This document shows positions 14,640-63,743 of a DNA stretch of 64,000 nucleotides, piece by piece. The stretch is from assembly GCF_022045235.1 (NCBI RefSeq), contig NW_027266279.1, positions 12,152,001-12,216,000 of the forward strand, written 5' to 3'. How positions within the stretch are numbered: the stretch's first letter is position 1; the number at the start of each line of letters is the position of its first letter. The notes under the pieces are model-generated. The model searched no databases. It saw nothing but the letters and a program-made list of their open reading frames with translations, and had not been told where the DNA came from. The translations under genes and the position numbers were made by a program. The stretch is from Haliotis cracherodii. Lineage: Eukaryota.

Positions 14640-15582
14640 TATTATGTTGACGATACAATACATTACGTTACGTATCCTGATACTATGTTGACGATAAAAA
14701 AACGTAACGTTACGTATCCTGATACTATGTTGACGATAAAATGCGTTAAGTATCCTGATACTGTGTTGACGATGAAATACGTTACGTATCCTGATACTAC
14801 GATGACGATGAAATACGTTACGTATCCTGATACTATGTTGACGATAAAAAAACGTAACGTTACGTATCCTGATACTATGTTGACGATAAAATGCGTTAAG
14901 TATCCTGATACTATGTTGACGATGAAATACGTTACGTATCCTGATACTATGTTTACGATGGAATACGTTACGTATCCTGATACTATGTTGACGATGAAAT
15001 ACGTTGCGTATCCTGATACTATGTTTACGACGAAATACGTTACGTATCCTGATACTATGTTTACGATGGAATACGTTACGTATCCTGATACTATGTTGAC
15101 AATGAAATACGTTACGTATCCTGATACTATGTTTACGATGAAATACGTTATGTATCATGATACTATGTTTACGATGAAATGCGTTACGTATCCTGATACT
15201 ATGTTTACGATGGAATACGTTACGTATCCTGATACTATGTTGACGATGAAATACGTTGCGTATCCTGATACTATGTTTACGACGAAATACGTTACGTATC
15301 CTGATACTATGTTTACGATGAAATACGTTACGTATCCTGATACTATGTTTACGATGGAATACGTTACGTATCCTGATACTATGTTGACAATGAAATACGT
15401 TACGTATCCTGATACTATGTTTACGATGAAATACGTTATGTATCATGATACTATGTTTACGATGACATACGTTACGTATCCTGATACTATGTTTACGATG
15501 AAATACGTTACGTATCCTGATACTATGTTGACGATGAAATACGTTTCGTATCCTGATATTATGTTCACAATGCAATACGTCC
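14640..15582. repeat. 33-bp minisatellite (ACGTATCCTGATACTATGTTTACGATGAAATACGTT-like)
   Basis: About 28 units; explains the repetitive ORFs on both strands. Confidence 0.95.
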
Positions 15583-17148
15583 AATACTGGCTGCTAAAGT
15601 TTTAGGGGCATTGAAACACTGTTGACACGCATGTTTAATCATGAGCAAGAATGAGGGACAAAGAAATATCGTGGCGCGCCAAAGGGCGGTAAATCATTGG
15701 AGTGGAACTTGTACGTACTATCATAGAAACTGAATTATTCACGCTTATTTCTTTAATATTATTTGCATTAATCACGATTGCCGGGATCGGAAATAAAAGT
15801 GTATTTATTTTATTAATGAATTTTGATCATATAAGAGGCTCTAGTAGAATTTTGTCATTTATCAAAGTAACTGGCTATTCTTTAGCCTTGTGCTTGAGTC
15901 GTTACAACCCCCCGAACTACCATGTCCCTTTCCGATAACACGAGTGGTCATTAATAGTCAATGTTGTTCATCCGGTTTTCATGATAATTGAGGAAACTGA
16001 TTGTTCTATCGCGACCCCGCTCGTAAAGTCAAACATATCTACTCATGTTCGACGCAGCTTGTGATAAACCTACTTCCTTGCTAGAAATATCACGTTTAGC
16101 TCACCATACACATAGTATACACAAAACCGCCGAATTAAATATCTGCTCTGTTGTAAACACGTTAGTGTTAGATTGTCTCCTATCCCAGCTTAGCAAGTGG
16201 AATCAAATGTAAATATGAAATGTAGATTATGTAATGAATTTAATCAGACTGTCCAACACATTGTCGGTGGATGCCTAGCTTTGGCATAAACACAGTATCT
16301 TAACGACATGATGGAGTTGTTCGATCATTCTTCGCCATGCTTGTGGTTTGACACAGGGGTCAATCCATGGTACGACCCGGAATATGTAAAGGGCGTCATG
16401 GAAAAATGACAAATACAAAATTCTTTGGAATAGGCCCGTTTACAGCCTCAGGCGCATCCAGGACAACAAACCTGGTCTTGTCCTTTTTGATAAATCCAAT
16501 GAAATCATTCACATCATTGAATTTTCTGTCGCCTTTGACACTGATGTTATTGACAAATATATATGGTAAATATGCGAACCTCGCATTCGAAATATCACGC
16601 TTGCATCCCAAGTACCAAGTTGTCCGACTACCCATTGTTCTCGGTGGGTTCGCCCCAGTCGCTATCTGGGCTGCGTGTAGAGGGGGCAAGAGCCCTGAGC
16701 TGAGCTGATGATGAGCCTATAACCAGCCTGACTGTGCCAGGATCACCGAAACCCTCTTTGCTGCATTTTATATTTTAATCTACTACTATATTTTCTCTAA
16801 CAGAAGCCGGGTCTGAACCCAGATTGGAAGAACAGAGACATGGTGCCCATTTAGAAACCTTTTAATGAATGGCCCCACACTTCCGGTGGAAACAACCCTT
16901 TTACAAAGTGATGGTAGCGCAAGGAGTTTGGTAAATCCGTGTTAAAAAATGAAAGTTACAATATTATTAGTGCTAAGATTGCTTCGAGGTAGTGGACCCG
17001 GTTTTCAAATAAACGCCAGGTTATAATTATGTCCGAACATTTATAAACGCCGGAGTGACCTGTTAAAGGAAATGGGATACTAATTAGGATGCAAGGTGAG
17101 CTAAACGTCTTACTTCTCCCAAGCAATGCTTTGACGACACATGAAAAT

Positions 17149-29453: not shown

Positions 29454-31856
29454 TTATAAGTTCTTTTCGATTTTCAAACTTTTTGACAAGTCTTTGAGTT
29501 CAGTTGCAGTATTTACTGGCAAATAACCTAACATCTGGTATACTGCTTTACAATTAGCGTCTATGACACGAGCTCTATTGAAGTCAAGTTCTTTTCGCCA
29601 CTGCAGAGCCGAACGTGATGAGTTTAGCCTCTGAGTGCACAAAACACAGTGTTCGTCCACTGAGCCGTTCGTCTTGGATTGAACGAATCGTTCCGTCTCA
29701 CGTGTATATGCCAGACCTACAAATGAAAACAGATCCTGCGCATTTCGAGAAGGGTGGACTACTAAATCCTCATACAAGAGCAATTTAGTTTTGTCAGGGT
29801 GAGATTTCATCAGTCGCTTGGTAACCTGCAGGTCTTTCTGTACCCTCAAGCAGTGCTCCTTGGAGTACGAATCAAGGTTGCTCCAAGTGTCACGCCCGAA
29901 TGATATCTGAGACTTGATGGTGGGCCGTGGGTCTCTGACCAAGTGTATGACTTTTAATGATGGATTTGATTTCATCATTGTCTCCACTGCTTCCATTGGG
30001 AAACGTATTGTTTTGATAACAGATACTTTTGAGTCCAAGCATTGCTTTTGAAGAATTGGTAAACAGTCTAACATTTTCATTACTCCGGGCTTTGACTTTA
30101 GACACATCTTGTAAGGTATCGTATCTTTGCTTTTTCCTAAGTGATGTTGACTTAGTGTTGCAATGTCTATCTTAGTTGGGTGACACCTCAAAAACCCGTC
30201 GGCAATGTCTTTTGCTGTTTTTGCAAAATCCGCTTCACTTGTGACTTCCCTGGAAAAAAATGGTTCACACATGAAATATCATTGTACACGAGTTGTTGGT
30301 TGGTTTGTTGTTTAACGCCGCACTCAGCAATATTCCAGTTTTATGACGGCGGTCTGTAAATAATCGAGTCTGGACCAGACAATCCAAGTCAGCGAGCCTG
30401 ACCAACCGATCCCGTTAGTCGCCTCCTACGACAAGCATAGGCGCCTTTTACGGCAAGAATGGGTTGCTGAAGACCTAGTCTATCCCGGATCTTCGCCCTG
30501 TATACAAATTCATATTTGATGTTTTTTTGTTTAACGCCGTACTACGCAATATTTCAGCTATAAGACAGCCACCTGCAAATAATCGAGCCCTGATAGTCCA
30601 GTGATTGATATTGTGAGCAATGATACGCACTCAACCAATTCCCAGAGTCTGACAACCCGATCCCTTAAGTCACGTATTTTGGGACCAATAACCCGCAATC
30701 ACCACAGGGGTTTCAAAACTGAGGTCTACATTCAAACTGAAGGTCGTCATTTCATGGTTGTTTTCTCCTGTTCCGAATACCTGTCATCAGCTCGCCGCGA
30801 GTAGCAACGCTGCAGTTATCAGCATATAAAGGGATTGCTGTTTTCAAGAACTACCATATACACATGTGCCTTTCCAAACAAAAGACAACACAATGACGAA
30901 AGTACAATAGATACCTTCAACGGCCAGGAAATATATGGTAGACATTCAGGGGAATTTACATAATATGACACGTCATATAGCTGGAATATTGCTGAGCGCG
31001 GCGTTAAACAACAAACGAACTTATACCTTAAACGAACTTCACATCATTTGTATCGCACTTTCGCCTGTTAAAATTATAATTAAACTAAATGAACATGTTA
31101 ACTGTCATACCTTGTTGACTTTTTATCTCTAGATGTGAACTCAGCTTGCCTCTTGAAAAGGTTGATTAATTTTGTTTGCAAGTTTGTTATTTAAATAAGC
31201 GCTCAGCAATATTCCAGCTGTGGTCTGTGAAGATTCCGGGGTAGAACAGGTCTTCATCAAACCATGCTTGCCGTAAAAGGTGACTATGCTTATCGTAAAA
31301 GCGGCTAACGGGATCGGGTGGTCAGGCTCGCAGACTTGGTTGATGCATGTCATAGATCCCAATCCCAATCATAGGTTACTGTTGACTTATATTTGTACCT
31401 GGAATCACCACGCGTCCGTCTAAAATATATAGGAAAAATTAAAACAATCATGATAGCAATTCGTACCTTGGAGGTTGATCAAAAAAGCTCAGGCGTGTTC
31501 TTTTAGACCACCATTCCCATTTCAAAGTATGCATTGGTTCAAAAACGTAGAATACATCCGGGTGCTGACCAAATATTTCTCCCGTTAGAGTCGAGCCGCT
31601 TCGCATGTACGTAAGTATAATCACGTTTGTACGGGGGAGCTGGTCATTCAAGGTGTGTAACTTTTGAAATTTGTCAACACATGATTCCGGGGGAGCCTCT
31701 GAAATTGTAGAAACGTTTTTTATCCTTCTTTGATTAAGCATGAAATAAGAAAATAAGAATGGGAATATACGAAATATGAAAAATGAAAATAAGTTGGTTG
31801 GTTGTTTAACGCCGCACTCAGCAATATTCCAGCGATATGACGGCGCACGTGTGTGT

Positions 31857-44260: not shown

Positions 44261-44755
44261 AAAATTTTATGGCAGACATGTGGAGGAAATGTGTAAATTT
44301 GACGCATCATGGACAAATAATGATGTCCGATGCAGTTCCTATTTTGACATTTTCCATTGGTTTAAGTAGGGAACATTCATTTTGAGAATGAGGAGTGAAC
44401 AATATTGTAATGCATTATGGAACATACTCAATAGAAATTGTGTTTATACAGTAGCATGTCAAATTTCCATTTCAAGAAAGGGAACTGAAAGTTTAACAAA
44501 GCCAAGGAAAACGACAAATGATTGCAACCATGATAGCACTCACATTGACAATATCAGGTGTTTGTGAAAGTGGACACATAAAAAACTATCAATACTGCAT
44601 GTATTCGCGTAACATCCGGTTCATAAGGTCAAACGTGTAGCTTGTCCACTATAGCATATGTGAATATGAGAGGAATAACATTTCAGAGTAAGTTAGTTAT
44701 TTCCAGATGGATGTTCACATTATTCAGTATTGCTTGGCAACGGTATAAAAATCTA

Positions 44756-45304
44756 AGTAGTTAAGTACTGTGGTATGGAACACCTCAGGATTATGGAACC
44801 ACTCAGGATTATGGAACCGGAAGTGACGTCACATCCTCTGTGACGTCACTTCCGGTCACGTGACCTGCGCAGTGCATGATGGGACTCTGCGCGTGCGCCT
44901 CCAAGATGGCGTCGCTTCCGTTTCCGGTGGCGTGCGCCTCCAAGAGGGCGTGGCTTCCGTGTCCGGTGGCGTGCGCCTCCAAGAGGGGCGTCGCTTCCGT
45001 GTCCGGAGTCGCGCGCCTCCAAGAGGGGCGTCGCTTCCGTGTCCGGAGGCGCGCGCCTCCAAGAGGGGTGGCGCTTCCGTGTCCGGTGGCGCGCGCCTCC
45101 AGGGGGTGGCGGTGGTGGAGGGAGGGAGGGAGGGAGGGAGGGAGGGAGGGTGGTGGTGGTGAAGGGAGGGAGGGAGGGAGGAAAGGAAGGAAAGGAGGAG
45201 GAGACGGGTTCATGGTGTGGGTGGGTGGGTGGGTGGGAGGGTCGTCAAAGCAAAGGAGGAAAGTTGTCTTTCGGGAGAGATGGGTGGCCCTGAAAAGGGC
45301 CGTT
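44756..45304 (+). repeat. Left terminal inverted repeat (549 bp)
   Basis: Reverse complement of 56077-56647; contains TATGGAAC repeats, a 41-bp palindrome, 39-40 bp GC-rich tandem units, (GGGA)n and a histone-type stem-loop. Confidence 0.96.
44816..44856. promoter_or_regulatory. Palindrome of two ETS-CRE composite sites in the left TIR
   Basis: ACCGGAAGTGACGTCACA-TCCTC-TGTGACGTCACTTCCGGT: 18-bp perfect stem, followed by E-box GTCACGTGAC. Confidence 0.75.
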
Positions 45305-45307
45305 TTG
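45264..45307 (-). terminator. Histone-type 3' stem-loop and downstream element (copy 1)
   Basis: Minus strand CAAAAC-GGCCCTTTTCAGGGCC-ACCCA-TCTCTCCCGAAAGACAA; stem-loop 45286-45301, 10 nt after the stop of ORF 45312-45650. Confidence 0.88.
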
Positions 45308-45311
45308 ATAT

Positions 45312-45650
45312 TTACATGCATGTGCACGCCATGGTGCAAAGGCACGGGTGGACTTTCATTTGACGTCTGACAGGACACCTACTGGTGTGCGTTAACCGAC
45401 GCACGTAGGTGTCCTTGAGGATGGTCTTACAGTACACACATTCGAAAGTCCCATCCCGTGCCCTTGTGCCAAGGGCGTACACAGGCAGGCCCCCTTGGCA
45501 TCTGTCGCATTGCCATGCTGGAGACCATGGTGGTGGTGGTGGTGATGCTTCTTTCCACCCGGGCAAAGGTTGTTTCACTGTGGCGATTTCTAAATCCCAG
45601 TTTTCTTTCATGTGGTAGTTGTTGCTGTTGCTGTTGCTGCTGCTCATCAT
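45312..45650 (-). CDS. Small Cys-rich putative zinc-binding protein (112 aa)
   Basis: CDRC...CVYC pair and terminal CLCTMACTC; ATG ~50 nt downstream of the TATAAAA of promoter copy A; stop next to the histone stem-loop. Confidence 0.68.
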   Translation of the reverse strand: MMSSSNSNSNNYHMKENWDLEIATVKQPLPGWKEASPPPPPWSPAWQCDRCQGGLPVYALGTRARDGTFECVYCKTILKDTYVRRLTHTSRCPVRRQMKVHPCLCTMACTCM

Positions 45651-45659
45651 GATGAATCA

Positions 45660-45962
45660 ATTTTACAAGTGACACTGACCCACTCGAATCCACTGTTGTT
45701 TTATAGGAGAGGTACTGACACCCACCCTCCTGGTTGGTTCGCCAGACCGCAGCTCCGATTGGTTCGTTCCGGGGCCTGGTCAGCACCTCGGTTTTCCAAA
45801 ACGGACCGACCCCTGTGTTTCTTTTCCATAGGAAATGGATTTTACCATGGGAGAGAAAGCACAACCCCGGTTCGGCCAATCAGAGCCCCACCTGGTCCGA
45901 GCACCGCTTCTGATTGGTCGACAACCCAGGCTTCGGATTGGTCCCATTTCGATCCGGTTTTT
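45660..45962 (-). promoter_or_regulatory. Repeated multi-CCAAT/TATA promoter module, copy A
   Basis: Homologous to 47332-47630, 52040-52275 and 55030-55300; TATAAAA on the minus strand at 45705-45699. Confidence 0.8.
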
Positions 45963-46503
45963 TCTTCTTGGGTAGCCTTGGTATTTTTTTTTGAGGTAGA
46001 CGGTCGTCTGAATGCTAAAGGAAGGTGGACCTTCATCGGTAGACATGAACGTGGGAATGCCTACGTGATGTACGTGTGTGTCACTCCCATGCCAATCGGA
46101 ATGTCATGTGTGCATGTGTGTGTGTGGGTATGTGTGTATGTCTTCAAACAGACGTTGACGTTGATGTATAGAATAGCGTGTGGTCAGGCAAAACGTAGTG
46201 TCGCGATGTGAACGTCATGTACACGTGGTGTCCTGTGTGTGTGTGTGTGTGTCTTCAAATTAGTATTATTATGATTATTTAAGGATACCGAGGTGTTGAC
46301 ACCCGTGTAAGTCGACAGACGTACTGTGACACGTGTTTTCATGCACACGTGATGTTTGACGTGGTGTACCACGTGTCTCTATTGATCTATTTATATTTAT
46401 ATCTATTTATTTTATTTTTAGACGTGTGCCTCCAAGAGGCCTAGGGGAGGGTGTGGGTTCTTTGTTTTGGATTGTCATTGTTTGGCAAAGCAAAGGTAGA
46501 AAG

Positions 46504-46549
46504 TTGTCTTTTGGGTGAGATGGGTGGCCCTGAAAAGGGCCGTTTTGGG
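46504..46549 (-). terminator. Histone-type 3' stem-loop and downstream element (copy 2)
   Basis: Minus strand CCAAAAC-GGCCCTTTTCAGGGCC-ACCCA-TCTCACCCAAAAGACAA; stem-loop 46526-46541, ~310 nt downstream of the BIR gene stop. Confidence 0.86.
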
Positions 46550-46854
46550 AAAGAAGAAAACTTTTCTGCTGCTGTCCAAGAAGAATGATCATGTCCAAGC
46601 TTATTGACAAGACAAGGATCGTCGAAGGGGTACTTGCTGCCATCTGGGTATGTCATCGGGGTGACCACCGTGACACCACTTGTGGGTCCAACAAAGAAAA
46701 GTTTGTTGGAAACAGGAAGCGGAAACAGATTGAACCATTCACAACAACAACTGTAGACAAACGGGAACTTGAACGGGAACTGGAACGGGAACTTGAACGG
46801 GGAACTGGAACGGGAACTTGAACGGGAACGCAGGACACGAGAAACGTCGTCCTC

Positions 46855-47331
46855 CTAGGCAGCCGGCTCTGCTACGTCATTCGTGTACCTCTGTTTCTCT
46901 TCGCAGAGATAGTGTAGTTGTAGTTGCTTCTGGTGTTTCACCAGCCCGGTTAGCTTGAGGTAATCGCAGTCTGGGGACCACTTGTGATGTGCCGCCCAAG
47001 GATTGTCGTGGGGTGCCCATTGTCTCAGCCGCACACCACATTGGAAACAGCACACACCATCGGCACCCTGAGTGTAGACAAAGCCCGCATGAGCCATCTC
47101 CTCAGCAGTCTGATACATTTGCGTGGGCCACGTCTCAAACGAAGCGAGCCTTCTTTCAAAGCGCAGATAATAGTGCGATGGTGTTTGACTGAGCAGTGAC
47201 ACCGCCTCCTCGGCATGACTCTTACTCCAACATGCACGAGTATCTGTACCCTCCATTCCCACATCTTCGCTACGCGTCGTCGTCGTACCACTCCTCTTTG
47301 TTTCAGCCATTCTTGATTTTATCACATCCAT
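46855..47331 (-). CDS. Single-BIR-domain inhibitor-of-apoptosis-like protein 1 (158 aa)
   Basis: RRLASFETWP...MAHAGFVY...DGVCCFQCGVRLRQW...DNPWAAHHKWSPDCDYL: complete BIR with CxxC...H...C zinc ligands. Confidence 0.93.
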   Translation of the reverse strand: MDVIKSRMAETKRSGTTTTRSEDVGMEGTDTRACWSKSHAEEAVSLLSQTPSHYYLRFERRLASFETWPTQMYQTAEEMAHAGFVYTQGADGVCCFQCGVRLRQWAPHDNPWAAHHKWSPDCDYLKLTGLVKHQKQLQLHYLCEEKQRYTNDVAEPAA

Positions 47332-47630
47332 TTTACAAGTGACACTGACCCATTCGAATCCACTCTTGTTTTATGGGGGAAGAACCGGATCGAAATGGGG
47401 TGCTTCCTGGTTGGTCCAAAACGCAACGCACCGATTGGTTCGTTTCGGGGCCTGGCCTGCACCTCGGTTTTCCAAAACGACCCGACCCCTGTGTTTCTTT
47501 TCCATAGGAAATGGATTTTACCATGGGAGAGAAAGCACAACTCGGGTCGGGTGCTGCCTTCTGATTGGTCGAGGCTGTCTTCTGATTGGTCGACAATCCA
47601 GGCTTCGGATTGGTCCGATTTCGATCCTGT
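47332..47630 (-). promoter_or_regulatory. Promoter module copy B, between the divergent BIR1 and pPolB genes
   Basis: Four ATTGG boxes, CATAAAA at 47375-47369, and the same 5' leader (GTGGATTCGA.TGGGTCAGTGTCACTTGTAAAA) as copy A. Confidence 0.8.
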
Positions 47631-47708
47631 TTTGGGGAAGGGTTGTCCATCCATCAGACGTTCAGACCCTCTTAGAGTACAGGCGTTCATCAGACACACA
47701 TCGTTATC

Positions 47709-50700
47709 ATGACGAGCAACCAAAGTACGCCCTATCGTTTGGAGAGGAAAGATACCACCCGCTCCAGACGGTTAAGAACTGCTAATCATACCTATCGTTT
47801 GACTTTCAACCCAGACTACTTGGACACCGTACCACCGGAACGCGTCCCCCTGGAACTGCCAGCTTTATTTGACAGGGTGATCGATGACTTTTATGAACAG
47901 ATGTCAGGTCAGAAGGGAGATCGTATTGGTCTAGGTATCGATCATCCCGCTTTGAACACCCCCATACGGATTCCCTTTCGACGTTTTGAAGATCTCCATG
48001 GGCCAGATATTTTGCAGGCCGTGGAAAAAGTCCAACAGTCCAACAAAGACCTGAACATCGATGACACCATGGATGTGACTTTAGTACACGTCGCAGATCC
48101 CGACAGGCTAGGATCGGGCAGTGGTGCTCCCCGGGTGAAAAACGTGATTGGACTCGAAGCTTTTTTAACACGCAAAAGGTGCATCGTACGGATCAAGAAC
48201 GAAGATCAATCCTGTTTGGCACGGGCCCTGGTGGTGGCACAGCATTATGCCCACAAACCCCATCCTTTGACCCCAGCATGGAAAGCCCAGTTAGTGAGAC
48301 TGATGAGAACGAATCGCGTCGACGTTCAAGGCCTACGGGCACGGGCCTTGTTTCGACGCCTTGGCCTGCCTGAAGGTCCCTGTCGGGGGCTGGACGACCT
48401 CGCACGCGTGGGACGGGCCTTGACCCACCTGCATTATCAACTGAAAGTCTACAGTCAAGAGGTGGGTCAGAGACTGTTGTACAAGTGTGATGAGGCTCCA
48501 CCTCACGCCACGGTGCTGCATCTATACCATCATGATCAGCACTACGATGTCATCACTTCCATGTCCGCTTTTTACGGGTCTGACCATTACTGCGAACGTT
48601 GCGACAAACGTTACGACCATCCCGAAAAACATCCCTGCACCAAGGAATACCGCTGTCACCGCTGCTTCTACTCTAGCTATTGTGGACCCCAGGAAGAGCT
48701 CGGGATCCCTTGCTTGACATGTCAAGGTTGGTTCCCCAATCCAACGTGTTACACCCGACATCTCCAGTCACCGTCAGAGGGAAAACCCAGCGCCTGTCAA
48801 TCGATTCACAGGTGCCCGAACTGTTTTCAGCTGGTCCGCGTCTTGGAGACCCCCATGGTTCACCACGAGTGCTTCGACGAAGAACATCCCTGCTTGGTGT
48901 GCCGAGAACCCATGACCCCAGACCATCGCTGTTACATGACGCCTCTCCGTGAAGAAAACGAGGAGGGGGAGGAGGGGGAGGAGGGGGAGGGGGAGGGGGG
49001 AGAGGAAACGGAGAAGGAGGGGGAAGAGGAACAACATCACGTACGAGACGACGTCCAATACGTCTTCTACGATTTTGAATGCATGCAAGACACGGGGGAA
49101 CACATTCCAAATTTGTGCGTGGTGCAACTAGGATGTGGACGATGCATCAGTGAAGTGAGCAAGAACTTGTGCGAACACTGCCCATGGAGAGAAGAAGGGT
49201 ATGGTCCCAGCCGTGAGATCGTGTTTCGAGGGCCCACCACGCGACATGATGTGTGTGTGTGGTTGACCACGTTGTGTGAAATACCCAAGAAGAAGAAGCC
49301 CAACCCGGAGGAAGAGGAGGACAGCACACGCAAGGGCACAACAGCCCCCCTGGGGAAAAAAAGAAAACGGGATGGCACCCCCTCAAGAAAGGACGCTACC
49401 AAACGTCAACGGCATGCATCACCCCAGCAGGAGGCGGAGGAGACGGAAGAGGTGGAGGAGGTGGAAGAGGTCATGGAAGTGGAGAAAACAAAGAAGCCAA
49501 AGAACAAGAACACCTCCTGCCATACAGTCCCGAAGGAGGATCGCATTTATGTGATGGCCCACAATGCACGATCCTATGATTTACACTTAATCCTGAAGGG
49601 CCTGTCCCCCCTCCTGGTGACGCTCCCCACCAAGATTCGACATGGCCAACACATTTTGCAGATGACCCTGGGACGGCTGTGTTTCGAAGACAGCTTAAAT
49701 TTCATCCCTTACCCCCTGAAAGCCTTTCCCAAGAGCTTTGGGCTGAAAGAAATGAAGAAAGGGTACTTTCCACACTTTTTCAATACGAGAGTCAACCAGA
49801 CCTACAGAGGTCCCTATCCACCAGCCGTCACGTACGATCCCGATGGCATGTCTCCCGCGGAACGCTCAGCCTTCCTCCAGTGGCATACCCAAAAAGTGCA
49901 AGAAGGAGCCTTGTTCGACTTACAAGAAGAACTTTTAGCTTACTGCCAGAGCGATGTGGACATTTTGAGACGGGGATGCGCCGACTTCCGACAGAACGCC
50001 ATCCACTCGGTGGGCATGGATCCCTTTGTGGAAGTGATGACAGCTGCTGCGTTCACCATGAAATCCTTCCGAAAACACGACCTGAAACCCAATACCATCG
50101 CCATTCTTCCACCTCAAGGCTACCAACCCAAGAGAAACTATTCCCAGGCCTGTATGCACTGGCTCCACTCTCTGATGGAAAGGGACCCCCATCTGCACCT
50201 CCAGCACGCCAGGAATGGCGGTGAAAAAGAGTTCACCTGTGGAGAGGGTCAACATCGGTACAGCGTGGATGGGTACGATCCAGCGACAGGCACCGTCTAC
50301 GAATTCCTGGGCTGTTTCTGGCATGGGTGCAACACCTGTCACAAGACCCGACGTGGAGAACCGCATCCCGTCCTGGGCACGTCGTTGGGAGCCCGTTACA
50401 CCGACACCCACTACCGCTTGAGTCTCTTGAGTCAACACCCTGAGGTGAAACGGGTCGTCGCCCTGTGGGAGCACGAATTTACGAAAATGCAACGGGAGGA
50501 CTCCGCTCTACGTGCTTTCTTGCAGGGACCCCACTGTCGTCACGTCCCCGGGCCACTCAACCCTCGCGACGCCTTCTATGGAGGACGCACCAATGCCACG
50601 CGATTATGCTACGAAGCCCAAGAAGGTGAAACCATCAAGTACATCGATATTTGTTCCCTTTATCCCTACATTTGTAAGACCGGAGCGTTTCCCACGGGAC

Positions 50701-51971
50701 ACCCGACCCTTCTCCATCAACCCCCTGTGGACACGTTGTTTGAACTGAAAGGCCTGATCCAATGCCGTGTCCTACCCCCGAAACGACTCTACCATCCGCT
50801 ACTGCCTTACAGATTGGGCGGCAAACTGCTCTGTCCTTTGTGCCGTACGTGTGCCGATACCCGGTCAGACTCCCCCTGCGAGCACACGGACGAAGAGAGG
50901 TCATGGGTGGGGACGTACGCCACCGTAGAACTCCAGGAAGCCGTGAAGAAGTATGACTACCGGGTGCTTCAGATCTACGACGTTTGGCATTTTGACACCT
51001 TTGCACAGCATGACCCCGACACCCAGCAAGTGGGACTCTTTGACACTTACATCGATCGACATTTCAAGGAGAAGCTCGAAGCCAGCGGATACCCCGAAGG
51101 ATGTACGGATCACGACGCTTACATCCAGGAGATCTACGACAAAGAAGGCATTCGGTTGGACAAGGACCGCATCGAAAAAAATCCAGGACGCCGCACGATT
51201 GCCAAGATGCAACTGAATTCGCTCTGGGGCAAGTTTGGGCAACGGGTAGACTACAGTCAGAACGTCTATATGAACGATCCTGCACAGTACTTTGCCTTGT
51301 GGAGGGATGACCGCAATACCATCGAGGATGTGACCGTTGTCAACGAACACATGGTGGATGTGACCTATACCCAGCGGAAAGAATTCCAAACCCCTCATTC
51401 TCATTTCAATGTCGCCATCGCTGCTTGGGTCACCGCCCAAGCACGTCTCAAGCTGTACGAGACCCTTGCCCTGGTGGGCCGCAGGGTCTTGTACTTTGAC
51501 ACGGACAGCGTCATTTACATTCATCGACCCCACGACGCGAATCCAGAGCTGGGTCATTCGTTGGGTGAGTTTACGGATGAACTGGACGGAAACACCATCA
51601 AGACGTTTGTGTCAGGAGGTCCCAAAAACTATGGCTATGAGTTAATGAACCCCAGACCCGATGGAACGCGCACGACCTGCAAAGTGCGAGGGTTCACTTT
51701 GAATTACCGAAACCAACGCCATCTCAACTTTGACACCATGAAAGGACTGATACTGGGACAACGGTCTGGGAAAGAGGAGGAAGAGAAAATCAGTTTGGAT
51801 TACCCTCATCAGATCATTCGAAAAGGACCTCGGCACGAAAACGCACTCGTGACCCGCCCCACCCGAAAAGACTATCGTACCGTGTACGACAAGCGACGTG
51901 TGGTCTACGACGACACCACAGGCCTACCTGTAGACACGCTACCCTTTGGGTACAGAGACGACTTTCTATAA
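47709..51971 (+). CDS. polB: Protein-primed family B DNA polymerase (Polinton pPolB), 1420 aa
   Basis: ExoI VFYDFEC, ExoII AHNARSYD, ExoIII YCQSDVDIL, FYGGRT, motif A YIDICSLYP, motif B KMQLNSLWGKFGQ, motif C YFDTDS, GPKNY, KVRGF; uninterrupted ORF. Confidence 0.97.
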   Translation: MTSNQSTPYRLERKDTTRSRRLRTANHTYRLTFNPDYLDTVPPERVPLELPALFDRVIDDFYEQMSGQKGDRIGLGIDHPALNTPIRIPFRRFEDLHGPDILQAVEKVQQSNKDLNIDDTMDVTLVHVADPDRLGSGSGAPRVKNVIGLEAFLTRKRCIVRIKNEDQSCLARALVVAQHYAHKPHPLTPAWKAQLVRLMRTNRVDVQGLRARALFRRLGLPEGPCRGLDDLARVGRALTHLHYQLKVYSQEVGQRLLYKCDEAPPHATVLHLYHHDQHYDVITSMSAFYGSDHYCERCDKRYDHPEKHPCTKEYRCHRCFYSSYCGPQEELGIPCLTCQGWFPNPTCYTRHLQSPSEGKPSACQSIHRCPNCFQLVRVLETPMVHHECFDEEHPCLVCREPMTPDHRCYMTPLREENEEGEEGEEGEGEGGEETEKEGEEEQHHVRDDVQYVFYDFECMQDTGEHIPNLCVVQLGCGRCISEVSKNLCEHCPWREEGYGPSREIVFRGPTTRHDVCVWLTTLCEIPKKKKPNPEEEEDSTRKGTTAPLGKKRKRDGTPSRKDATKRQRHASPQQEAEETEEVEEVEEVMEVEKTKKPKNKNTSCHTVPKEDRIYVMAHNARSYDLHLILKGLSPLLVTLPTKIRHGQHILQMTLGRLCFEDSLNFIPYPLKAFPKSFGLKEMKKGYFPHFFNTRVNQTYRGPYPPAVTYDPDGMSPAERSAFLQWHTQKVQEGALFDLQEELLAYCQSDVDILRRGCADFRQNAIHSVGMDPFVEVMTAAAFTMKSFRKHDLKPNTIAILPPQGYQPKRNYSQACMHWLHSLMERDPHLHLQHARNGGEKEFTCGEGQHRYSVDGYDPATGTVYEFLGCFWHGCNTCHKTRRGEPHPVLGTSLGARYTDTHYRLSLLSQHPEVKRVVALWEHEFTKMQREDSALRAFLQGPHCRHVPGPLNPRDAFYGGRTNATRLCYEAQEGETIKYIDICSLYPYICKTGAFPTGHPTLLHQPPVDTLFELKGLIQCRVLPPKRLYHPLLPYRLGGKLLCPLCRTCADTRSDSPCEHTDEERSWVGTYATVELQEAVKKYDYRVLQIYDVWHFDTFAQHDPDTQQVGLFDTYIDRHFKEKLEASGYPEGCTDHDAYIQEIYDKEGIRLDKDRIEKNPGRRTIAKMQLNSLWGKFGQRVDYSQNVYMNDPAQYFALWRDDRNTIEDVTVVNEHMVDVTYTQRKEFQTPHSHFNVAIAAWVTAQARLKLYETLALVGRRVLYFDTDSVIYIHRPHDANPELGHSLGEFTDELDGNTIKTFVSGGPKNYGYELMNPRPDGTRTTCKVRGFTLNYRNQRHLNFDTMKGLILGQRSGKEEEEKISLDYPHQIIRKGPRHENALVTRPTRKDYRTVYDKRRVVYDDTTGLPVDTLPFGYRDDFL

Positions 51972-52039
51972 CTTTTTTTTTTGCATGACAAGGGGATCGA
52001 AACTGAATCGACATGAACCCCTTACAGAAAAAAAAAAAA

Positions 52040-52275
52040 AAAAACGGATCGAAATCGGACCAATCCGAAGCCTGGGTTGTCGACCAATCAGAGACCGTGC
52101 TCGAGCCATGGTGGGCTCTGATTGGTCGAACCGAGGTTGTGCTTTCTCTCTCACGCTACAAGCCTAACCCTATGGAAAAGAAACACAAGGGTCGGTCCAG
52201 TTTGGAAAAATGGAGACTCAGACCAGACACCGGAACGGACCAATCAGAAAGCAGGACCTCCGTGGCTTTTAATAC
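52040..52275 (+). promoter_or_regulatory. Promoter module copy C (most diverged)
   Basis: GGATCGAAATCGGACCAATCCGAAGCCTGGGTTGTCGACCAATCAG... shared with the other copies; TTTTAATA in the TATA position; upstream of the gene at 52481. Confidence 0.75.
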
Positions 52276-52480
52276 GCCCGATGCTCTCCGGTCATCACTT
52301 TTCACTGAACCGACCAAGCAACCACATCGCCCCCCTCTGATTGATGTTCCTCACGTTGTGTTGGTTGTTGGCGTTTTATCTGGAAGAAACACGTGTTTGG
52401 AGAGAGTACCATCAAGTGTTGACGCACCTCCGTGAAGACTTGAAAAGAAACAACAACGAACAGAACATCCGGACAACATC

Positions 52481-53565
52481 ATGTCGAAACGGTTGAATGA
52501 CAAGACACGAAGCGACATGAGTGGCCAAGGAAGCAGTGGAGATGGGAACGGTGACATGACTGCTGAACTGTGGGGTGAAGTGTACGACTTGCTGTGTTTA
52601 AAGATGAAGACCGACGACGCGTACGCCAAGTTACGTGCGAAGGGCGACAACCTGATGTGCGAACAGATACGTTCAAAGATGAGGAAGCTGACTGAACCCG
52701 AGAAAGGCACATCGAAGAAGACGATAAAGAAGATCCAGAAGAAAAAGACAAGCAAGCCCACAGTCGTTGTGATCCCCACAGCAGCAGCAACACCCACCAC
52801 CACCACCACCACATCAGCAACAGCAACAACGGCTGCAGCGACCACAGACATCGAAACGATGGGGACATCCTTTTTGAAACCTGCAACGCCTGCAAAAAGA
52901 CGATCACGGAAGAAATTATCTCTGAAGATCTCTCCTCAAGAACAGCTGTAAGTACCCTTGCTCTTCTTTGTCTCAGTCATTCTTGATGTGATTCATATTC
53001 ATGACCTATTCCTATGATAAATGGACTCTGTCCTATGATTGACAGGACCCCTGATGTCAGTTCAGCCCAGGCCGTGCTAGAACAGTGGTGGGAACAAACC
53101 CCTCGGGAGCCCACCTATTCACCGAATGCCCCTGCTGTGACGATGGCGACGGGTGACCGTGAGGATCATGAAGCGCTCAAGCTGGCCACTCTCCCTTCCA
53201 TGGATCTGGACACGCTCCCCCTGCTTGAGGCTTCTTGGTCACCAACATCCCCGGAAGATGTTCATGTCTACTCCTCAGGTACGCCCCTGGTTTGCGACGA
53301 TAATGAAGATGATGATGATGTGGATGACAACGACGTTGACCTGGATCCTTATGGAGAAGCTCAACTCACTCCCCTACAACGCGGATGTCGTATTTGCCGA
53401 CACAACAACATGTTAAGATACATCAGTTGCAACAGCGGGCAAGTGATGTGTCATACCTGTGGTCTGGAGCTCATAGACTGTACTTGTAGTATGTTGACCT
53501 ATGACCGCATAATGACACATGATGACATGCCTATCACATCTGCTGAGGATCACATCTTATGGTGA
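52481..53565 (+). CDS. Spliced ~328-aa protein with LxCxD, acidic tract and C4 zinc finger (E1A/E7-like layout); exons 52481-52947 and 53046-53565
   Basis: Donor CT|GTAAGT at 52948 and acceptor TTGACAG|G at 53045 join the two ORFs in frame; C-terminal LVCDDNEDDDDVDD...GCRICRH...MCHTC; AATAAA at ~54005. Confidence 0.72.
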
Positions 53566-54303
53566 TCCTCCTCTTCACTCGAAGAACTTGTCAACACGTA
53601 TGCTGCAACCGTGATCAAGTGATGTGTCATGTCTGTTTCAGGGAGACCATAGACTGTACGTGTTGAACGGATGGACCTCTCACAGGGTTGAGGGAGGACC
53701 ACCTCTTATGGGCTTGAAGATGGAAGAGGAAAACGTTGTCGCGTTATTGTTGTTGTTGTAGGGACATGCAAAGCACTCCCTCCTCCATTGACTTTTCGTA
53801 TTTCCGTTGTATCTGGTTGTGATTGGTTTTTTTTCATGATTAAACAGTGATTGATTGAACTGACTCTTTGTGTCTTGATTGATCTCAACTCCAATAGAGT
53901 GCCGAACCGAGGGTAGAGGTTGAGTTGAGATGTCGTTGACGTTGTCTGTCCGTCTGTCTGTCTGTGCATCTGTCATGTCAGTGCACACCCAAGTGTAAAA
54001 TTAAAATAAAAAATAGATAAAAGAGAAAGGCCATGCTTGAAAGATCAGCTGCCTGGTGTCGGTCATTCCAGTACGCATCGATCCCCACACCCCCTCCCCG
54101 TGTACCATGTCATGTCATGGATCGTGTCACGAATCATGCCGTGTGTCCGTCAACCCAAACACAGGATGACGTCACGTGATGAGGTGAAGGAGGTGGAGGA
54201 GGTGGAAGCTAAGGTCATGACCTTCCGTGGAAGGGAGTAGGGTGGAGAGTTTCATAAAAGCAGGCGAACCCTCAGACCTTCTTTCAGTGAAGTCACCGTC
54301 ATC

Positions 54304-54816
54304 ATGGAGCAAAGACGTTCTATGAATGCCATGTCATCCTCCCGAGATGTCGTCACCGATTCCGAGTGGGTGTCTGAAAAGGCGAGAGAACAAGAAGCGA
54401 GAAAACATTCCCTCTTTAGGGACGACACGTGGCGACTCAGTGACATTCTGGAGGGACCTTTTCCTTCTTACACCCTGTGTCATCCTTCTCATCCCCACTA
54501 TGATTCATTTCAAGAACGTCTGAGATCTTTTAAAACGTGGCCTCAACAGATGACCCAGACCCCGTATGACATGGCCATGGCTGGCTATTTCTATCCAGGA
54601 CAAGGTGATTGTGTGACCTGTTATTGCTGCGGTGTGGCACTCCGCCAATGGGAAGCCACAGACCAACCCTGGAAAGAACATCTGAAGCACGCCAAAGTCC
54701 CCTGCGAATACTTGTGTGTGTTTTGTCCTGATGGAGAAGTGAACGAAAAATACAGACGTTTGGTGTCCCAAGAAGCACGGAAGAGAAGAGTCGAGTGTCT
54801 TGTTCACCCCAAGTGA
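54304..54816 (+). CDS. Single-BIR-domain inhibitor-of-apoptosis-like protein 2 (170 aa)
   Basis: ERLRSFKTWP...MAMAGYFY...DCVTCYCCGVALRQWEATDQPWKEHLKHAKVPCEYL; CATAAAA ~50 nt upstream and TGACGTCACGTGA at ~54167. Confidence 0.93.
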   Translation: MEQRRSMNAMSSSRDVVTDSEWVSEKAREQEARKHSLFRDDTWRLSDILEGPFPSYTLCHPSHPHYDSFQERLRSFKTWPQQMTQTPYDMAMAGYFYPGQGDCVTCYCCGVALRQWEATDQPWKEHLKHAKVPCEYLCVFCPDGEVNEKYRRLVSQEARKRRVECLVHPK

Positions 54817-55029
54817 CAACGTTTCTTTTTTCAAAGTGTACAGACGTTCATACCCCCAGTGTTCACAAAAGTCACAGGGACGGTCCCCCCTCATCCTGTG
54901 ACTTTTTGTTTTGTGGTGTTGGTTCATGTGAGCGAGGGGATTAAATTTTTTTTAAAAACTCATAGTGGTGTTCTGTGGTCTGTAGGATGAAGAAAAACAA
55001 AACAGGATCGAAATGCACACCCCGATAAA

Positions 55030-55300
55030 AAAAACCGGATCGAAATTGGACCAATCCGAAGCCTGGGTTGTCGACCAATCAGAGACCGTGCTCGGGTCAT
55101 GCGGGGCTCTGAATGGTCGAACCGGGGTTGTGCTTTCTCTCCCATGGTAAAATCCATTTCCTATGGAAAAGAAACACAGGGGTCGGTCCGTTTTGGAAAA
55201 CCGAGGTGCAGACCAGGCCCCGAAACGAACCAATCGGGGGCGCGGCCTGGGGAACCAATCAGGAGGGTGGGTGTCAGTGACTCTCCTATAAAAACAAAAC
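55030..55300 (+). promoter_or_regulatory. Promoter module copy D
   Basis: CCAAT at 55051, 55075, 55230, 55255 and TATAAAA at 55287; upstream of the zinc-knuckle ORF. Confidence 0.82.
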
Positions 55301-55342
55301 AAGAGCGAAGCCACTCACACACACACACACACACTGCATTCT

Positions 55343-55945
55343 ATGAAACCCATCATGCCAGCTCGATACAGTTGTATGAAGTGCCAGACCGACAGTCACA
55401 GTTACCTGTACTGCCCTGAAGTGACATGCCTCGAGTGTGGCACTCAAGGTCACCGTCACTATGTCTGTCCGAAGATGAACAGTCAAGAGAAGCAGGAGAA
55501 TCGGAACCTGGACCGCTGTTACAACTGTGAAGCCCTGGGTCATTTCGCTGCAGATTGCCCAGAACCCAGTCGAAAGAAGACTCCCCATCGCCTGGACCAC
55601 TGTTACAACTGTCAAGCCCTGGGTCATTTCGCTGCAGATTGCCCAGAACCCAGTCGAAAGAAAACGTCAGCAACACCGTCCACGTCGACACCCGTGGCAC
55701 CCGTGACACCCGTGACACCCGTGACACAAGTGGTTCATCTCATCGAAGACGTGCACGTCGATGTCCTCGACCTAAAAGAATACCTCGCACAACTCCGGGC
55801 GGACATCACACCTCTTGTAGAGAAAAGAAAACGGGTCAGAAGCCTCTCAAGAAAGCACGCTTCAAAGCGCCGACGACACCTTCAGTCCGAGGATGAGATG
55901 GAAGTAGAGGGTGAAGAAGAGAGATCATCTGAACAAAGTGACTAA
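55343..55945 (+). CDS. Four-CCHC zinc-knuckle nucleic-acid-binding protein (200 aa)
   Basis: CMKCQTDSHSYLYC, CLECGTQGHRHYVC, CYNCEALGHFAADC, CYNCQALGHFAADC (all C-x2-C-x4-H-x4-C); basic NLS-like and acidic tail. Confidence 0.88.
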   Translation: MKPIMPARYSCMKCQTDSHSYLYCPEVTCLECGTQGHRHYVCPKMNSQEKQENRNLDRCYNCEALGHFAADCPEPSRKKTPHRLDHCYNCQALGHFAADCPEPSRKKTSATPSTSTPVAPVTPVTPVTQVVHLIEDVHVDVLDLKEYLAQLRADITPLVEKRKRVRSLSRKHASKRRRHLQSEDEMEVEGEEERSSEQSD

Positions 55946-56074
55946 CGCATGGGGCCATGCTACCCCACTGTTTTTTTACCAGTGTCCCATCGTTTGCAGT
56001 TTTTCCAGTGTTCCAGTGTTCCAGTGTTCCTGACGTTTCCTGTCGTTTCCAGTTTCCAGTTTCCAGTTTGTTTT

Positions 56075-56117
56075 CCAACGGCCCTTTTCAGGGCCACCCA
56101 TCTCTCCCGAAAGACAA
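56075..56117 (+). terminator. Histone-type 3' stem-loop and downstream element (copy 3)
   Basis: CCAAC-GGCCCTTTTCAGGGCC-ACCCA-TCTCTCCCGAAAGACAA; stem-loop 56080-56095, ~135 nt after the zinc-knuckle stop. Confidence 0.88.
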
Positions 56118-56647
56118 CTTTCCTCCTTTGCTTTGACGACCCTCCCACCCACACCATGAACCCGTCTCCTCCTCCTTTCCTCCCTCCCTCCCTCCCTCAA
56201 TTCACCACCACCACCCTCCCTCCCTCCCTCCCTCCCTCCCTCCCTCCACCACCGCCACCCCCTGGAGGCGCGCGCCACCGGACACGGAAGCGCCACCCCT
56301 CTTGGAGGCGCGCACCTCCGGACACGGAAGCGACGCCCCTCTTGGAGGCGCGCGCCTCCGGACACGGAAGCGACGCCCCTCTTGGAGGCGCACGCCACCG
56401 GACACGGAAGCCACGCCCTCTTGGAGGCGCACGCCACCGGACACGGAAGCCACGCCCTCTTGGAGGCGCACGCCACCGGAAACGGAAGCGACGCCATCTT
56501 GGAGGCGCACGCGCAGAGTCCCATCATGCACTGCGCAGGTCACGTGACCGGAAGTGACGTCACAGAGGATGTGACGTCACTTCCGGTTCCATAATCCTGA
56601 GTGGTTCCATAATCCTGAGGTGTTCCATACCACAGTACTTAACTACT
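56077..56647 (-). repeat. Right terminal inverted repeat (571 bp)
   Basis: Reverse complement of the left TIR with one extra 39-bp unit and small indels in the (GGGA)/(GGGT) tracts. Confidence 0.96.
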
Positions 56648-56846
56648 AATCTACACCCAAACGTCGCTATTAAATTATAAGAAAGCCGTTGTTATCGGTA
56701 AACGGTATCTACTTTAGATTTGTAAAGACTAAAGGACAGGAGGAAAACGCTAACATGCACTGACCGAGGGGCCTTCTTCAAGTCCGAACGCTTCGGGAGT
56801 CACTGTCGCCTCGTTGATCACCCCCGTCGCCCTGTCCGTGCAGCCC

Positions 56847-57684
56847 CCGCTTGACCAGTCCAGATGCCTGCCTGGTGATCGCTCTACCGCTTGACCAGTC
56901 CAGATGCCTGCCTGGTGATCTCCCTACCGCTTGACCAGTCCAGATGCCTGCCTGGTGATCTCCCTACCGCTTGACCAGTCCAGATGCCTGCCTGGTGATC
57001 TCTCTACCGCTTGACCAGTCCAGATGCCTGCCTGGTGATCTCCCTACCGCTTGACCAGTCCAGATGCCTGCCTGGTGATCTCTCTACCGCTTGACCAGTC
57101 CAGATGCCTGCCTGGTGATCTCCCTACCGCTTGACCAGTCCAGATGCCTGCCTGGTGATCTCTCTACCGCTTGACCAGTCCAGATGCCTGCCTGGTGATC
57201 TCCCTACCGCTTGACCAGTCCAGATGCCTGCCTGGTGATCTCTCTACCGCTTGACCAGTCCAGATGCCTGCCTGGTGATCTCTCTACCGCTTGACCAGTC
57301 CAGATGCCTGCCTGGTGATCTCTCTACCGCTTGACCAGTCCAGATGCCTGCCTGGTGATCTCTCTACCGCTTGACCAGTCCAGATGCCTGCCTGGTGATC
57401 TCCCTACCGCTTGACCAGTCCAGATGCCTGCCTGGCGATCTCTCTACCGCTTGACCAGTCCAGATGCCTGCCTGGCGATCTCCCTACCGCTTGACCAGTC
57501 CAGATGCCTGTCTGGTGATCTCTCTACCGCTTGACCAGTCCAGATGCCTGCCTGGTGATCTCTCTACCGCTTGACCAGTCCAGATGCCTGTCTGGTGATC
57601 TCCCTACCGCTTGACCAGTCCAGATGCCTGCCTGGTGATCTCTCTACCGCTTGACCAGTCCAGATGCCTGCCTGGTGATCTCCC
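56847..57684. repeat. 40-bp minisatellite (CCGCTTGACCAGTCCAGATGCCTGCCTGGTGATCTCYCTA)
   Basis: About 21 almost identical units. Confidence 0.96.
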
Positions 57685-58312
57685 TTTCGAAACCTACTGG
57701 CAGATGTGGCATTTGGTTGCTTGACACAAACGTATGCATCTCTAATAATCTGTAATCTCTAGAAACATGTTAAAAGTACGTCATGTATATGCTGACAATG
57801 ACACAACATGATTAAATACATAGTAAATACTCCTATTATTCCGGTAAAAACAATACGTAAAAACATGATCTTAATGTTATTTAAAACCTACCTATCATCA
57901 CACTGAACGTTTGTGCCAGTAGGTTCTGATCACTTTGTCAGTAAACAATGCTCTTGGCAACATGAAAGAATTAATTGTAACTCTTATCCTAAGTGAAATA
58001 GTTTGATGTGGAGGTTTTTGTTTTATCGATGCTGAAACTAAACAAATATATAAAGAGTAATATATTCCAAGTCAGTGACTAGAAAACTGATGGTGCGAAG
58101 CGAGACATGTGGGTTCGGCGATATCAGAGCCGAGCGACAATATTATCATTGGATTATACTAATATTATACCAACGGAAAATATACAGTGGCGCAAAATGT
58201 TGTTATTAAGAATGTTATTGAAAATAACAACTAGACATATGGTCACCTGTTTGATCAATGTTGCCTCAAATCAAATTTATTGACAAAACCGAAGCTTGGT
58301 AACGGGAGAAAG

Positions 58313-62764: not shown

Positions 62765-63557
62765 CTAGGCATGCGTAATGATACGTAGTGGGTGTGATAC
62801 ATTACGCAGGATGTCAACATTCTCCACTGGAAGGTACCCAAGTTTCTTGTAGACGTCGCGGCAATTCCTGTCAATAATCTTAACGTGCCGCATACTTATG
62901 TGTCCCCGCCATTTTTCTGACGCCTTTCTTGAGCTTTTCCGAACTGTACAAATTAGACATCTTCCATCTTTTGACGCTGAGGTTAATTTTCTCACACTTC
63001 TCTCCGTGTGTTTAGTGTAATTCAGACCCACAAACTTATATAATTCTTTTACCTCTGTTGAAGGATTCTGGCACAGATCTTCATAAAACAATATTTTGAT
63101 ACTCTTTGGAGACGTCATAAACCATTGTCTTGTCTCTCGAAGGTCTTCTGATAGTTTGTTACAATGCTTTAACGATTCCTCATCAATCTTTTCCCATGGG
63201 AAGCGGCCGTGTACAATTTGCGAAAGTAATGTTGCTCTTGGGTCTCGAATGAGATGTAGCACCTTTAGGGATTTGTCTTTGGTAGCAAGGTACTTGGCAG
63301 AAGTTATGGGAAATTCAATAGTTTTTATGACTCCGACCTTAGCGGCCATACACTGCTTGTTGATAATTGGAATGCACTTGAACAGATTAAGGGCTCCAGG
63401 GTATCTTAGCAAGCAATTGTGGTAGGATTTAGTGCTGGCACTTGATTGCATGTGATATTGGGTCAGAGTAGCAATATCGAGTTCCAGAAAATTACAACGG
63501 AAAACGTTCCGAATGGTTTTCTCTGCAATCCTGGCGTATTTAGATCCCGTCATGATA
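62765..63557 (-). CDS. Terminal coding exon of a second carbohydrate sulfotransferase paralogue (upstream exons outside the window)
   Basis: VIKTIEF, LKVLHLIRDPR, LFYEDL, IDRNCRDVYKKLGY align with the 30249-29454 exon; acceptor TATTTCAG at 63558 in the same phase. Confidence 0.88.
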
Positions 63558-63571
63558 CTGAAATAGAAGAA

Positions 63572-63743
63572 TGGGTGAGTGAGTGAGTTAATTTTACGCC
63601 ACTTTGGTTTGTTATATTCTTGCAATATCATGACCTGGGACATCGGAAATGGAGTTCACACACTGCACCCATGTGGGGTATCGAACACGGGCCTTCTGTG
63701 TGATGAGCAAATGCTTTAACCACACGACTATCCCACCGCCCCG
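63572..63743 (-). mobile_element. SINE family A, diverged inverted copy
   Basis: Similar to 21039-21208. Confidence 0.75.

Follow-up and report, generated by a model that had tools for sequence, protein, structure and literature searches.

Repeated CCAAT/TATA blocks and histone-type stem-loops in a Polinton-type element of Haliotis cracherodii with a candidate complementary partner

The element in the window and its partner

The 64,000-nucleotide stretch of Haliotis cracherodii DNA analyzed here (assembly GCF_022045235.1, contig NW_027266279.1, positions 12,152,001 to 12,216,000; hereafter the window) contains a Polinton/Maverick-type element of 11,892 bp at 44756-56647, and all four copies of a repeated CCAAT/TATA block lie within it. 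The element has terminal inverted repeats (TIRs) of ~550 bp with AGTAGT ends and is flanked by a 6-bp target-site duplication (TSD), AATCTA; (AGT)2//(ACT)2 ends and a 6-bp TSD are Maverick-defining according to the accessible text of PMC8097293. Its genes code for a protein-primed PolB, two BIR proteins (BIR1 and BIR2), a zinc-knuckle protein (gene D), a small Cys-rich open reading frame (ORF; gene A), and the product of a spliced gene (gene C), and neither the ORF list nor a Pfam search contained an integrase, ATPase, capsid, or protease gene in the element. The polB gene has 21 genome matches with open frames of 1426-1433 aa, and protein relatives are present in H. rufescens (92%) and H. asinina (50%). 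Ten fetched young copies of this polB half are 11.1-11.9 kb long with an identical layout, each flanked by a TSD (10/10), and in 19 more right arms, 3 of which are rearranged, no late genes lie between polB and the TIR.

A second family, the partner, was found where stem-loop matches fell near capsid matches. It is 9.9-10.6 kb in length, and its TIRs are those of the window element (72-97% identity in BLAST pieces). The partner codes for an A32-type ATPase (PF04665), an integrase with rve and chromo domains, a double jelly-roll capsid, and a protease-like ORF with 36% identity to a Peptidase_C5 match; polB is absent between its TIRs. The capsid is a putative one assigned by fold only, the model (pLDDT 92.7) matching the structure of the Sputnik major capsid protein (E 2e-15), and no sequence match was obtained in the PDB. 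Further partner ORFs presumably correspond to PZ, PW, TM, penton, and pVII-like proteins, labels given from position and motifs. TSDs were recognized by script in 8 of 12 pairs of ends (two being one duplicated insertion), by eye in one more, and in one further copy, and three pairs had none. All six tested ORFs were full length in 3 of 11 copies. Seven more loci carry a partner-type integrase, one of them with a decayed polB copy outside its TIR, and relatives of the partner proteins occur in H. asinina (integrase 65%, capsid 73%).

Young copies and TSDs are present in both halves, and their gene sets are complementary. Each half alone falls short of the definition of an intact Maverick, while both together appear to satisfy it. 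On balance, we consider it probable that they form a bipartite Polinton, in which a polymerase half with a shared promoter is complemented by a capsid-and-integrase half that lies elsewhere and has the same ends.

The CCAAT/TATA block

BLASTN alignment of the four block copies (Table 1) gave 77-92% identity (A/D 92% over 265 nt, E 6e-109; A/B 81%; C/D 86%; B/C 77%), in agreement with the initial annotation, and no fifth copy was found elsewhere in the window. The 1,098 module bases contain the sequence CCAATC/GATTGG 16 times, compared with 0.5 expected from the rest of the window. The block starts with GGATCGAAA, followed by a pair of CCAAT boxes at a spacing of 24 nt, a CCAAT box in reverse (forward in B), and an imperfect palindrome, after which come one or two more CCAAT-type boxes, a TATA box, and an initiator (Inr)-like motif. 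The TATAAAA attributed to the block holds in part, since A and D have a TATA box, whereas B has CATAAAA and C has TTTAATA (52268). Likewise, a stretch of ~46 nt from TATA to leader is common to A and B, but only ~19 nt of the supposed shared leader lie downstream of the predicted start.

Every copy points into an ORF, as first described. A promoter-like role, also proposed at the outset, is supported by the TATA-to-Inr spacing of 29 nt in A, B, and C and by the conservation of the CCAAT boxes above that of the spacers (0.95 vs. 0.80 in 56 non-redundant copies; p 3e-7, columns not independent). Of the two, CCAAT conservation is the chief argument for promoter function. The palindrome's right half is likewise conserved, but that half served to choose the loci. 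The module core was rejected as a special DNA hairpin (imperfect palindrome, z = -0.66). Judged from sequence features, the accessory genes in the polB half likely share the block as their RNA polymerase II promoter. The promoters of the late genes have TATA-like boxes and at most one CCAAT, which suggests an early/late promoter split. The polB ATG has no TATA box of its own, and module B may be used bidirectionally toward polB. Neither a poly(A) signal nor a stem-loop is present within 500 nt downstream of polB, and its transcript may pass through module C and end with gene C.

The 19-nt module core has 406 exact matches in the genome, as might be expected of an independent MITE (a miniature transposable element with inverted repeats) or a host repeat inserted four times. 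However, all 20 top matches and all 20 isolated-looking sites, chosen among 100 listed of the 406, lie inside this element family. The block has neither TSD nor TIR of its own, its orientation is always into an ORF, and its copies sort by position, with identities of 0.97-0.996 within classes and 0.65-0.92 between them (A-D 0.915, A-B 0.79, C-D 0.76). An origin as a MITE or host repeat is therefore extremely improbable. The grouping by position indicates that the block duplications are older than the recent spread of the family. Homogenization of A and D within each element was also considered and gave no signal (0.918 in the same element, 0.915 in different elements).

Derivation of the block from host histone promoters found no support. 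The block could not be aligned to any of the five upstream regions (H1, H2A, H2B, H3, and H4), and its capture from an H1 or core-histone promoter was rejected, 17-145 of 200 shuffles scoring equally high. Only short words are common to them (GGATCGAAA in H2A/H2B, AAAGCACA in H1). In the host (loci L021-L032 on C37 and L053-L066 on C23), the 4.25-kb tandem unit of core histone genes does not include H1, which lies in a separate 3-kb tandem array, and the upstream motif TCTYCTC..GTCCGCGC is common to H1, H4, and H2B.

Histone-type 3' ends

The histone stem-loop reported behind three of the four downstream genes was recovered as three matches above the gathering threshold of Rfam RF00032, behind A, BIR1, and D. 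For A and D, the stem-loop forms the inner end of a TIR, so these two represent a single duplicated signal. The cassette of promoter, ORF, and stem-loop proposed earlier is whole for A, BIR1, and D in 11/11 young elements, with the ATG 41-69 nt after the TATA, an open ORF, and then the stem-loop. A fifth cassette is located on the partner and consists of a truncated module, an 86-aa ORF (ORF86) with a beginning similar to that of gene D, and, 47 nt farther, a stem-loop; ORF86 is present in 8 of the 11 partner ends examined, and the junction between this cassette and the ATPase lies inside the module core.

The 16-nt stem-loop of the element is the same as that of host H1, from which the core histones differ by one compensated pair. 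The 44-47 nt around the element stem-loops are 82-84% identical to the host H1 3' end (E 3e-8), with 83% over 47 nt for gene D (E 3e-8), and a purine-rich downstream element is present that resembles those of host H1 and the core histones. Among 88 stem-loop matches, whose collection by similarity biases them toward conservation, 71 have an exact stem-loop and all 88 an intact downstream AAAGA, whereas the bases next to that motif vary in 25-35. BIR1 retains its stem-loop across three different 3' untranslated regions, at 60-63 nt from the stop in 7/11 copies vs. 313 nt in the window. Gene C has no stem-loop and has splice sites and AATAAA at 54005 instead. Its GT-AG joint (intron 53279-53641) was observed in 4/4 runs from 3 studies, all of them assembled contigs guessed to be RNA, and the intron is kept in 28/28 genomic copies. 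The stem-loop pattern gave 0 matches in viral contigs, four metagenome polB relatives (28-43%) had no stem-loop within their short contigs, and neither module nor stem-loop was seen in the fetched stretches of seven Polinton loci of other families in this genome. From the 3' signal we infer that the RNAs of A, BIR1, D, and ORF86 may undergo histone-type processing by SLBP/U7.

Alternatively, the block could be a promoter and the stem-loop a non-functional relic of the TIR, with transcripts that undergo conventional processing or read-through. The TIRs contain two of the three stem-loops, the stop-to-stem-loop distances of A and D are atypical, AATAAA lies 125 nt beyond the stem-loop of the window BIR1, and no U7 was found (see below). 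However, the internal stem-loop of BIR1 and that of ORF86 keep a constant position after an open ORF, the AAAGA downstream of the stem-loop is the same in all 88 matches, a poly(A) signal is missing within 500 nt of A, D, and ORF86, and the sole spliced gene is the one that lacks the stem-loop. We regard a relic as quite unlikely.

Recombination at the block

The cargo of the cassettes had been described as swappable. Among 135 module contexts scored, at loci that partly overlap, 117 showed the five standard pairings, 2 joined the polB end to gene A, and 16 were unresolved, which does not support free exchange of the cargo. Recombination at the block, in turn, is borne out by a young recombinant of 8,087 bp that has a TSD (L211/L189). 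In it, module C switches to module A inside the shared 5' part and gene A, the stem-loop, and the TIR follow beyond the crossover. Locus L048 is an older case of exchange, L134 carries a module, a BIR gene, and a stem-loop behind the protease, and gene A has a B-type leader and start in 3/11 copies. These cases indicate that the block is a real, infrequent recombination point. It was not where the virion module was lost, as had been suggested: both deletion breakpoints of the polB half lie outside the blocks, and the virion module is found on the partner with the same TIRs.

One-piece forms, selection, and possible mutual dependence

The genome searches covered one assembly and scored the best 108 of 416 polB, 131 of 300 capsid, and 131 of 1938 integrase candidates. 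They gave 108 polB and 65 capsid places after second fragments of one locus had been removed from 118 and 77 rows. None of the 49 polB places at at least 95% was within 30 kb of any of the 65 capsid places, and none of the 10 capsid places at at least 95% was part of such a pair. Of the three polB-capsid pairs within 30 kb, one belongs to another family, one is an old relic, and one consists of two distinct decayed elements. Five fetched loci contain both gene sets, all of them old (74-93% identity), and old relics with polB beside ATPase, integrase, or capsid are L037, L045, L050, and L078. The window element itself keeps the ATPase upstream region and stub, a late promoter, and the protease 3' region, which indicates that the ancestor was one piece. 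BIR2 occupies the site of the former late-gene block. Its TATA-only promoter and initial codons are those of the second gene in the partner, and its 3' region is that of the partner protease gene (ATTAAA at 54940; matches of 82-83% to the partner).

Variants shared by at least two copies were taken to reflect the active lineage. In polB, these are 27 synonymous and 15 non-synonymous, compared with 16 and 46 among private variants (Fisher p 1e-4), and dN/dS is 0.15-0.22. For seven partner genes, the shared variants are 29 synonymous and 34 non-synonymous vs. 87 and 184 private ones (p 0.04; p 5e-5 against an assumed neutral synonymous share of 0.23), with dN/dS ~0.3. The synonymous share of the shared variants exceeds the neutral one in both sets, and these counts point to purifying selection on polB and the partner genes. 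Copies differ in the outermost 135 nt of their TIRs, and the two ends of one copy mostly match. The end variants occur in a mixture across the two halves: a single clade for the partner ends is rejected (p-AU 2e-112), and 180 of 500 label shuffles were as clustered, a tree being an imperfect model for recombining TIR ends. Such mixing fits free linear replication of both halves by the same polymerase, which may have taken place.

Both families might be ordinary non-autonomous deletion derivatives with no mutual need, mobilized by an intact master, be it a one-piece copy that this assembly lacks or a different Polinton family. The genome has complete Polintons of other families, many more deletion derivatives exist, and polB-less insect polintons beside more complete relatives are described in the accessible part of 10.1101/2025.02.07.637071; the single assembly and the scoring of best candidates also favor such a master. 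However, no young one-piece copy was present among the 41 fetched polB loci at at least 95% or indicated by co-location, each half keeps purifying selection on genes that the other half lacks, both arrangements range from old to young copies, and the sole other-family end inspected has only AGTAGT in common with this TIR. We consider the deletion-derivative explanation rather unlikely and prefer the bipartite Polinton.

Several observations weigh against the bipartite Polinton and the histone-type processing of its RNAs. With one assembly and the best candidates scored, an intact one-piece master could be missed or occur in other individuals, and a helper could come from another Polinton family, which has polB, integrase, ATPase, and protease. 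The per-gene selection counts of the partner are small (2-14 shared variants), and genes A and D give no purifying signal (shared synonymous/non-synonymous 3/16 and 0/10). The run contigs that span the gene C joint are only guessed to be RNA, and contigs cannot show transcript starts or 3' ends; their depth and ends were left aside, since contigs break at repeats and give no ranking of genes. A distance of 25-60 nt from the stop to the signal, measured to the conserved 26-nt sequence, is said to be critical for the control of histone mRNA stability. This rule is followed only by ORF86 and 7/11 BIR1 alleles, and not by A, D, or the window BIR1. Finally, no U7 snRNA was found (Rfam below the cut-off; 4 pattern matches vs. 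6 in the control).

Other features of the element, its relatives, and the window

The coordinates of the features are collected in Table 1.

Table 1. Features of the Polinton-type element in the window (positions are those of the window).
Feature	Position	Strand	Remarks
TSD AATCTA	44750-44755; second copy 56648-56653		6 bp
Left TIR, AGTAGT end	44756-45304	+	Inner end is the gene A stem-loop; same TIR on partner
Histone-type stem-loop and downstream element	45261-45306	-	RF00032 35.6 bits; 10 nt past gene A stop
Gene A, 112-aa Cys-rich ORF	45312-45650	-	Two CxxC-type motifs
Module A with TATA and leader	45660-45963	-	Block 45699-45963; TATA 45699-45706
Histone-type stem-loop and downstream element	46501-46546	-	RF00032 36.8 bits; 313 nt past BIR1 stop
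BIR1, single BIR-domain ORF	46855-47331	-	PF00653 E 1e-22
Module B	47331-47633	-	Back end 76 nt ahead of polB ATG
polB	47709-51971	+	PF03175 E 4e-35
Module C, most diverged copy	52036-~52300 (end approximate)	+	TATA-like TTTAATA at 52268
Gene C	52481-54010	+	First donor GTAAGT 52948; GT-AG intron 53279-53641; acidic/Cys-rich exon; AATAAA 54005
Relic of ATPase upstream region and 24-codon ATPase stub (ATG 54166)	54005-54240	+	79-89% to partner
BIR2 region	54245-55010	+	ORF 54304-54816; PF00653 E 2e-20; no module
Module D	55029-55293	+	TATA at 55286
Gene D, 200-aa zinc-knuckle (CCHC) ORF	55343-55945	+	PF00098 E 1.5e-12
Histone-type stem-loop and downstream element	56075-56120	+	RF00032 36.4 bits; 134 nt past gene D stop
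Right TIR, ACTACT end	56077-56647	-	

The Pfam search gave no match for gene A, and no family was assigned to gene A or ORF86; a weak zf-BED look-alike in gene A (Atlas 0.87-0.88) is a lead only. A 14-bp inverted repeat (ACAAAAGTCACAGG) is located at 54864-54905, upstream of the ATTAAA of BIR2, and has been kept downstream of the protease gene in the partner. The first ~40 nt of the TIRs (44756-44800 and 56603-56647; ends of L087-L132) are hypervariable among copies but usually matched within a copy, and they surround a small GGT-N5-ACC hairpin. An extra AGT triplet is present at one end in two copies, which is what jump-back initiation would give. The TIR stretch 44815-45110 is rich in what we take to be housekeeping-type promoter motifs (GGAAGTGACGTCA, CACGTG, and CAAGATGGCG) and also holds a 39-40-bp tandem repeat of variable copy number.

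A third class comprises four loci, L163-L166 (C2:54.23M, C7:3.60M, C6:5.82M, and C6:36.13M), which are largely palindromic and have no core gene. Their arms are 2.2-3.4 kb long; these mini-elements also carry the ORF86 cassette and are filled out with tandem repeats, and one of them has TIRs and a TSD at 7.65 kb. They resemble defective copy-back genomes, and their padding might reflect a size constraint. A separate Polinton family at L068/L069 (C4:10.273-10.288M) carries polB, a PC4-like gene, ATPase, integrase, capsid-like ORFs, and protease, and several more Polinton families with 434-450-aa capsids and BIR genes are present in the genome. At L159/L160 (C1:41.91-41.93M), a polB half contains inserted integrase and ATPase fragments that are 32-37% identical to those of the partner, and the insert is probably from another Polinton family.

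Outside the element, the flanking host ORFs at 29454-31741(-) and 62765-63643(-) are, by a motif, candidate sulfotransferase exons. The window also contains long minisatellite arrays at 2500-3480, 14600-15700, 21400-22900, and 56840-57690, with units of 39, 36, 26, and 40 bp, alongside a repeated ~150-bp family resembling short interspersed elements.

Discussion

A more far-reaching and tentative reading is that the two families are a bipartite integrating double-stranded DNA virus of the double jelly-roll lineage, with a replication segment, a virion/integration segment, a reusable promoter cassette, and early genes that use the histone-mRNA pathway. On this reading, one genome would have preserved the ancestor in one piece together with its two partial forms and gene-poor parasites.

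The bipartite Polinton could work as follows. The host factors NF-Y and TBP would start transcription ~29 nt past the TATA, and the back of module B may drive polB. Host SLBP/U7 would cut the intronless RNAs of A, BIR1, D, and ORF86 at a signal whose source was a histone gene, probably H1; the RNAs of spliced gene C and of the late genes would be polyadenylated. The pPolB from the polymerase half would then copy both halves as linear DNA, starting at the shared ends, and the integrase, probably together with capsids, would be supplied in trans by the partner. During free replication, the ends and the promoter blocks would recombine and now and then relocate a promoter-ORF-stem-loop cassette.

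To our knowledge, Polintons are described as one-piece elements. A genome in which the ancestor survives alongside its two complementary halves and gene-poor parasites would be a rare fossil record for the origins of multipartite viruses, and selection on capsid genes in a half that cannot copy itself bears on particle formation by Polintons. Histone mRNAs are called the only non-polyadenylated mRNAs in the portions available of PMC12305476 and PMC8108526, so use of an SLBP/U7 signal by a virus-like element would mean that the pathway is hijacked. If true, this hijack possibly times gene expression to DNA synthesis.

As far as the accessible text of PMC8097293 and PMC8502044 goes, Polintons/Mavericks (adintoviruses) are similar in TIRs, ends, 6-bp TSD, pPolB, integrase, ATPase, double jelly-roll capsid, and protease, and accessory genes of IAP-like and Cys-rich types are reported in adintoviruses. 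Unlike in those elements, the core genes here are divided over two elements with common TIRs. No report of repeated CCAAT blocks or a histone stem-loop in a Polinton, or of a split Polinton, was found in the literature, with subscription papers, Repbase entries, and supplements outside the scope of the search. The insect polintons of 10.1101/2025.02.07.637071 are, in its accessible part, also TIR-flanked and have lost polB yet remained mobile. Here, the only young polB source found is without integrase and capsid, so the dependence appears mutual, whereas in the insects polB is retained in more complete relatives.

Metazoan replication-dependent histone genes, in the parts of 10.64898/2026.10.14.759114 that are available, are similar in stem-loop, purine-rich element, spacing, single-ORF genes, and upstream CCAAT and TATA boxes. 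However, the genes described here are non-histone genes of a mobile element, their promoter is not alignable to those of histones, and the A and D distances are outside 25-60 nt. The one-piece relics, partial forms, and mini-elements correspond to the cooperator, partial cheats, and near-full cheats in the cheat model of multipartite origin, as given in the accessible text of PMC10159356. That model is theory, whereas the present case is a genomic fossil record with putative complementation.

Bidnaviruses (Bombyx mori bidensovirus) and Drosophila Vesanto virus are segmented DNA viruses that encode PolB, according to the available text of 10.1101/697771 and PMC8363768. Bidnavirus segments have matching termini, as do both halves here, and the combination of matching termini and complementary genes that marks a bidnavirus-like organization was found. 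Those viruses have single-stranded DNA and are parvovirus-like in the same partial sources, whereas the present system has a double jelly-roll capsid and an integrase, and both halves are integrated with TSDs. By analogy, the system would work like a segmented PolB virus built from Polinton parts.

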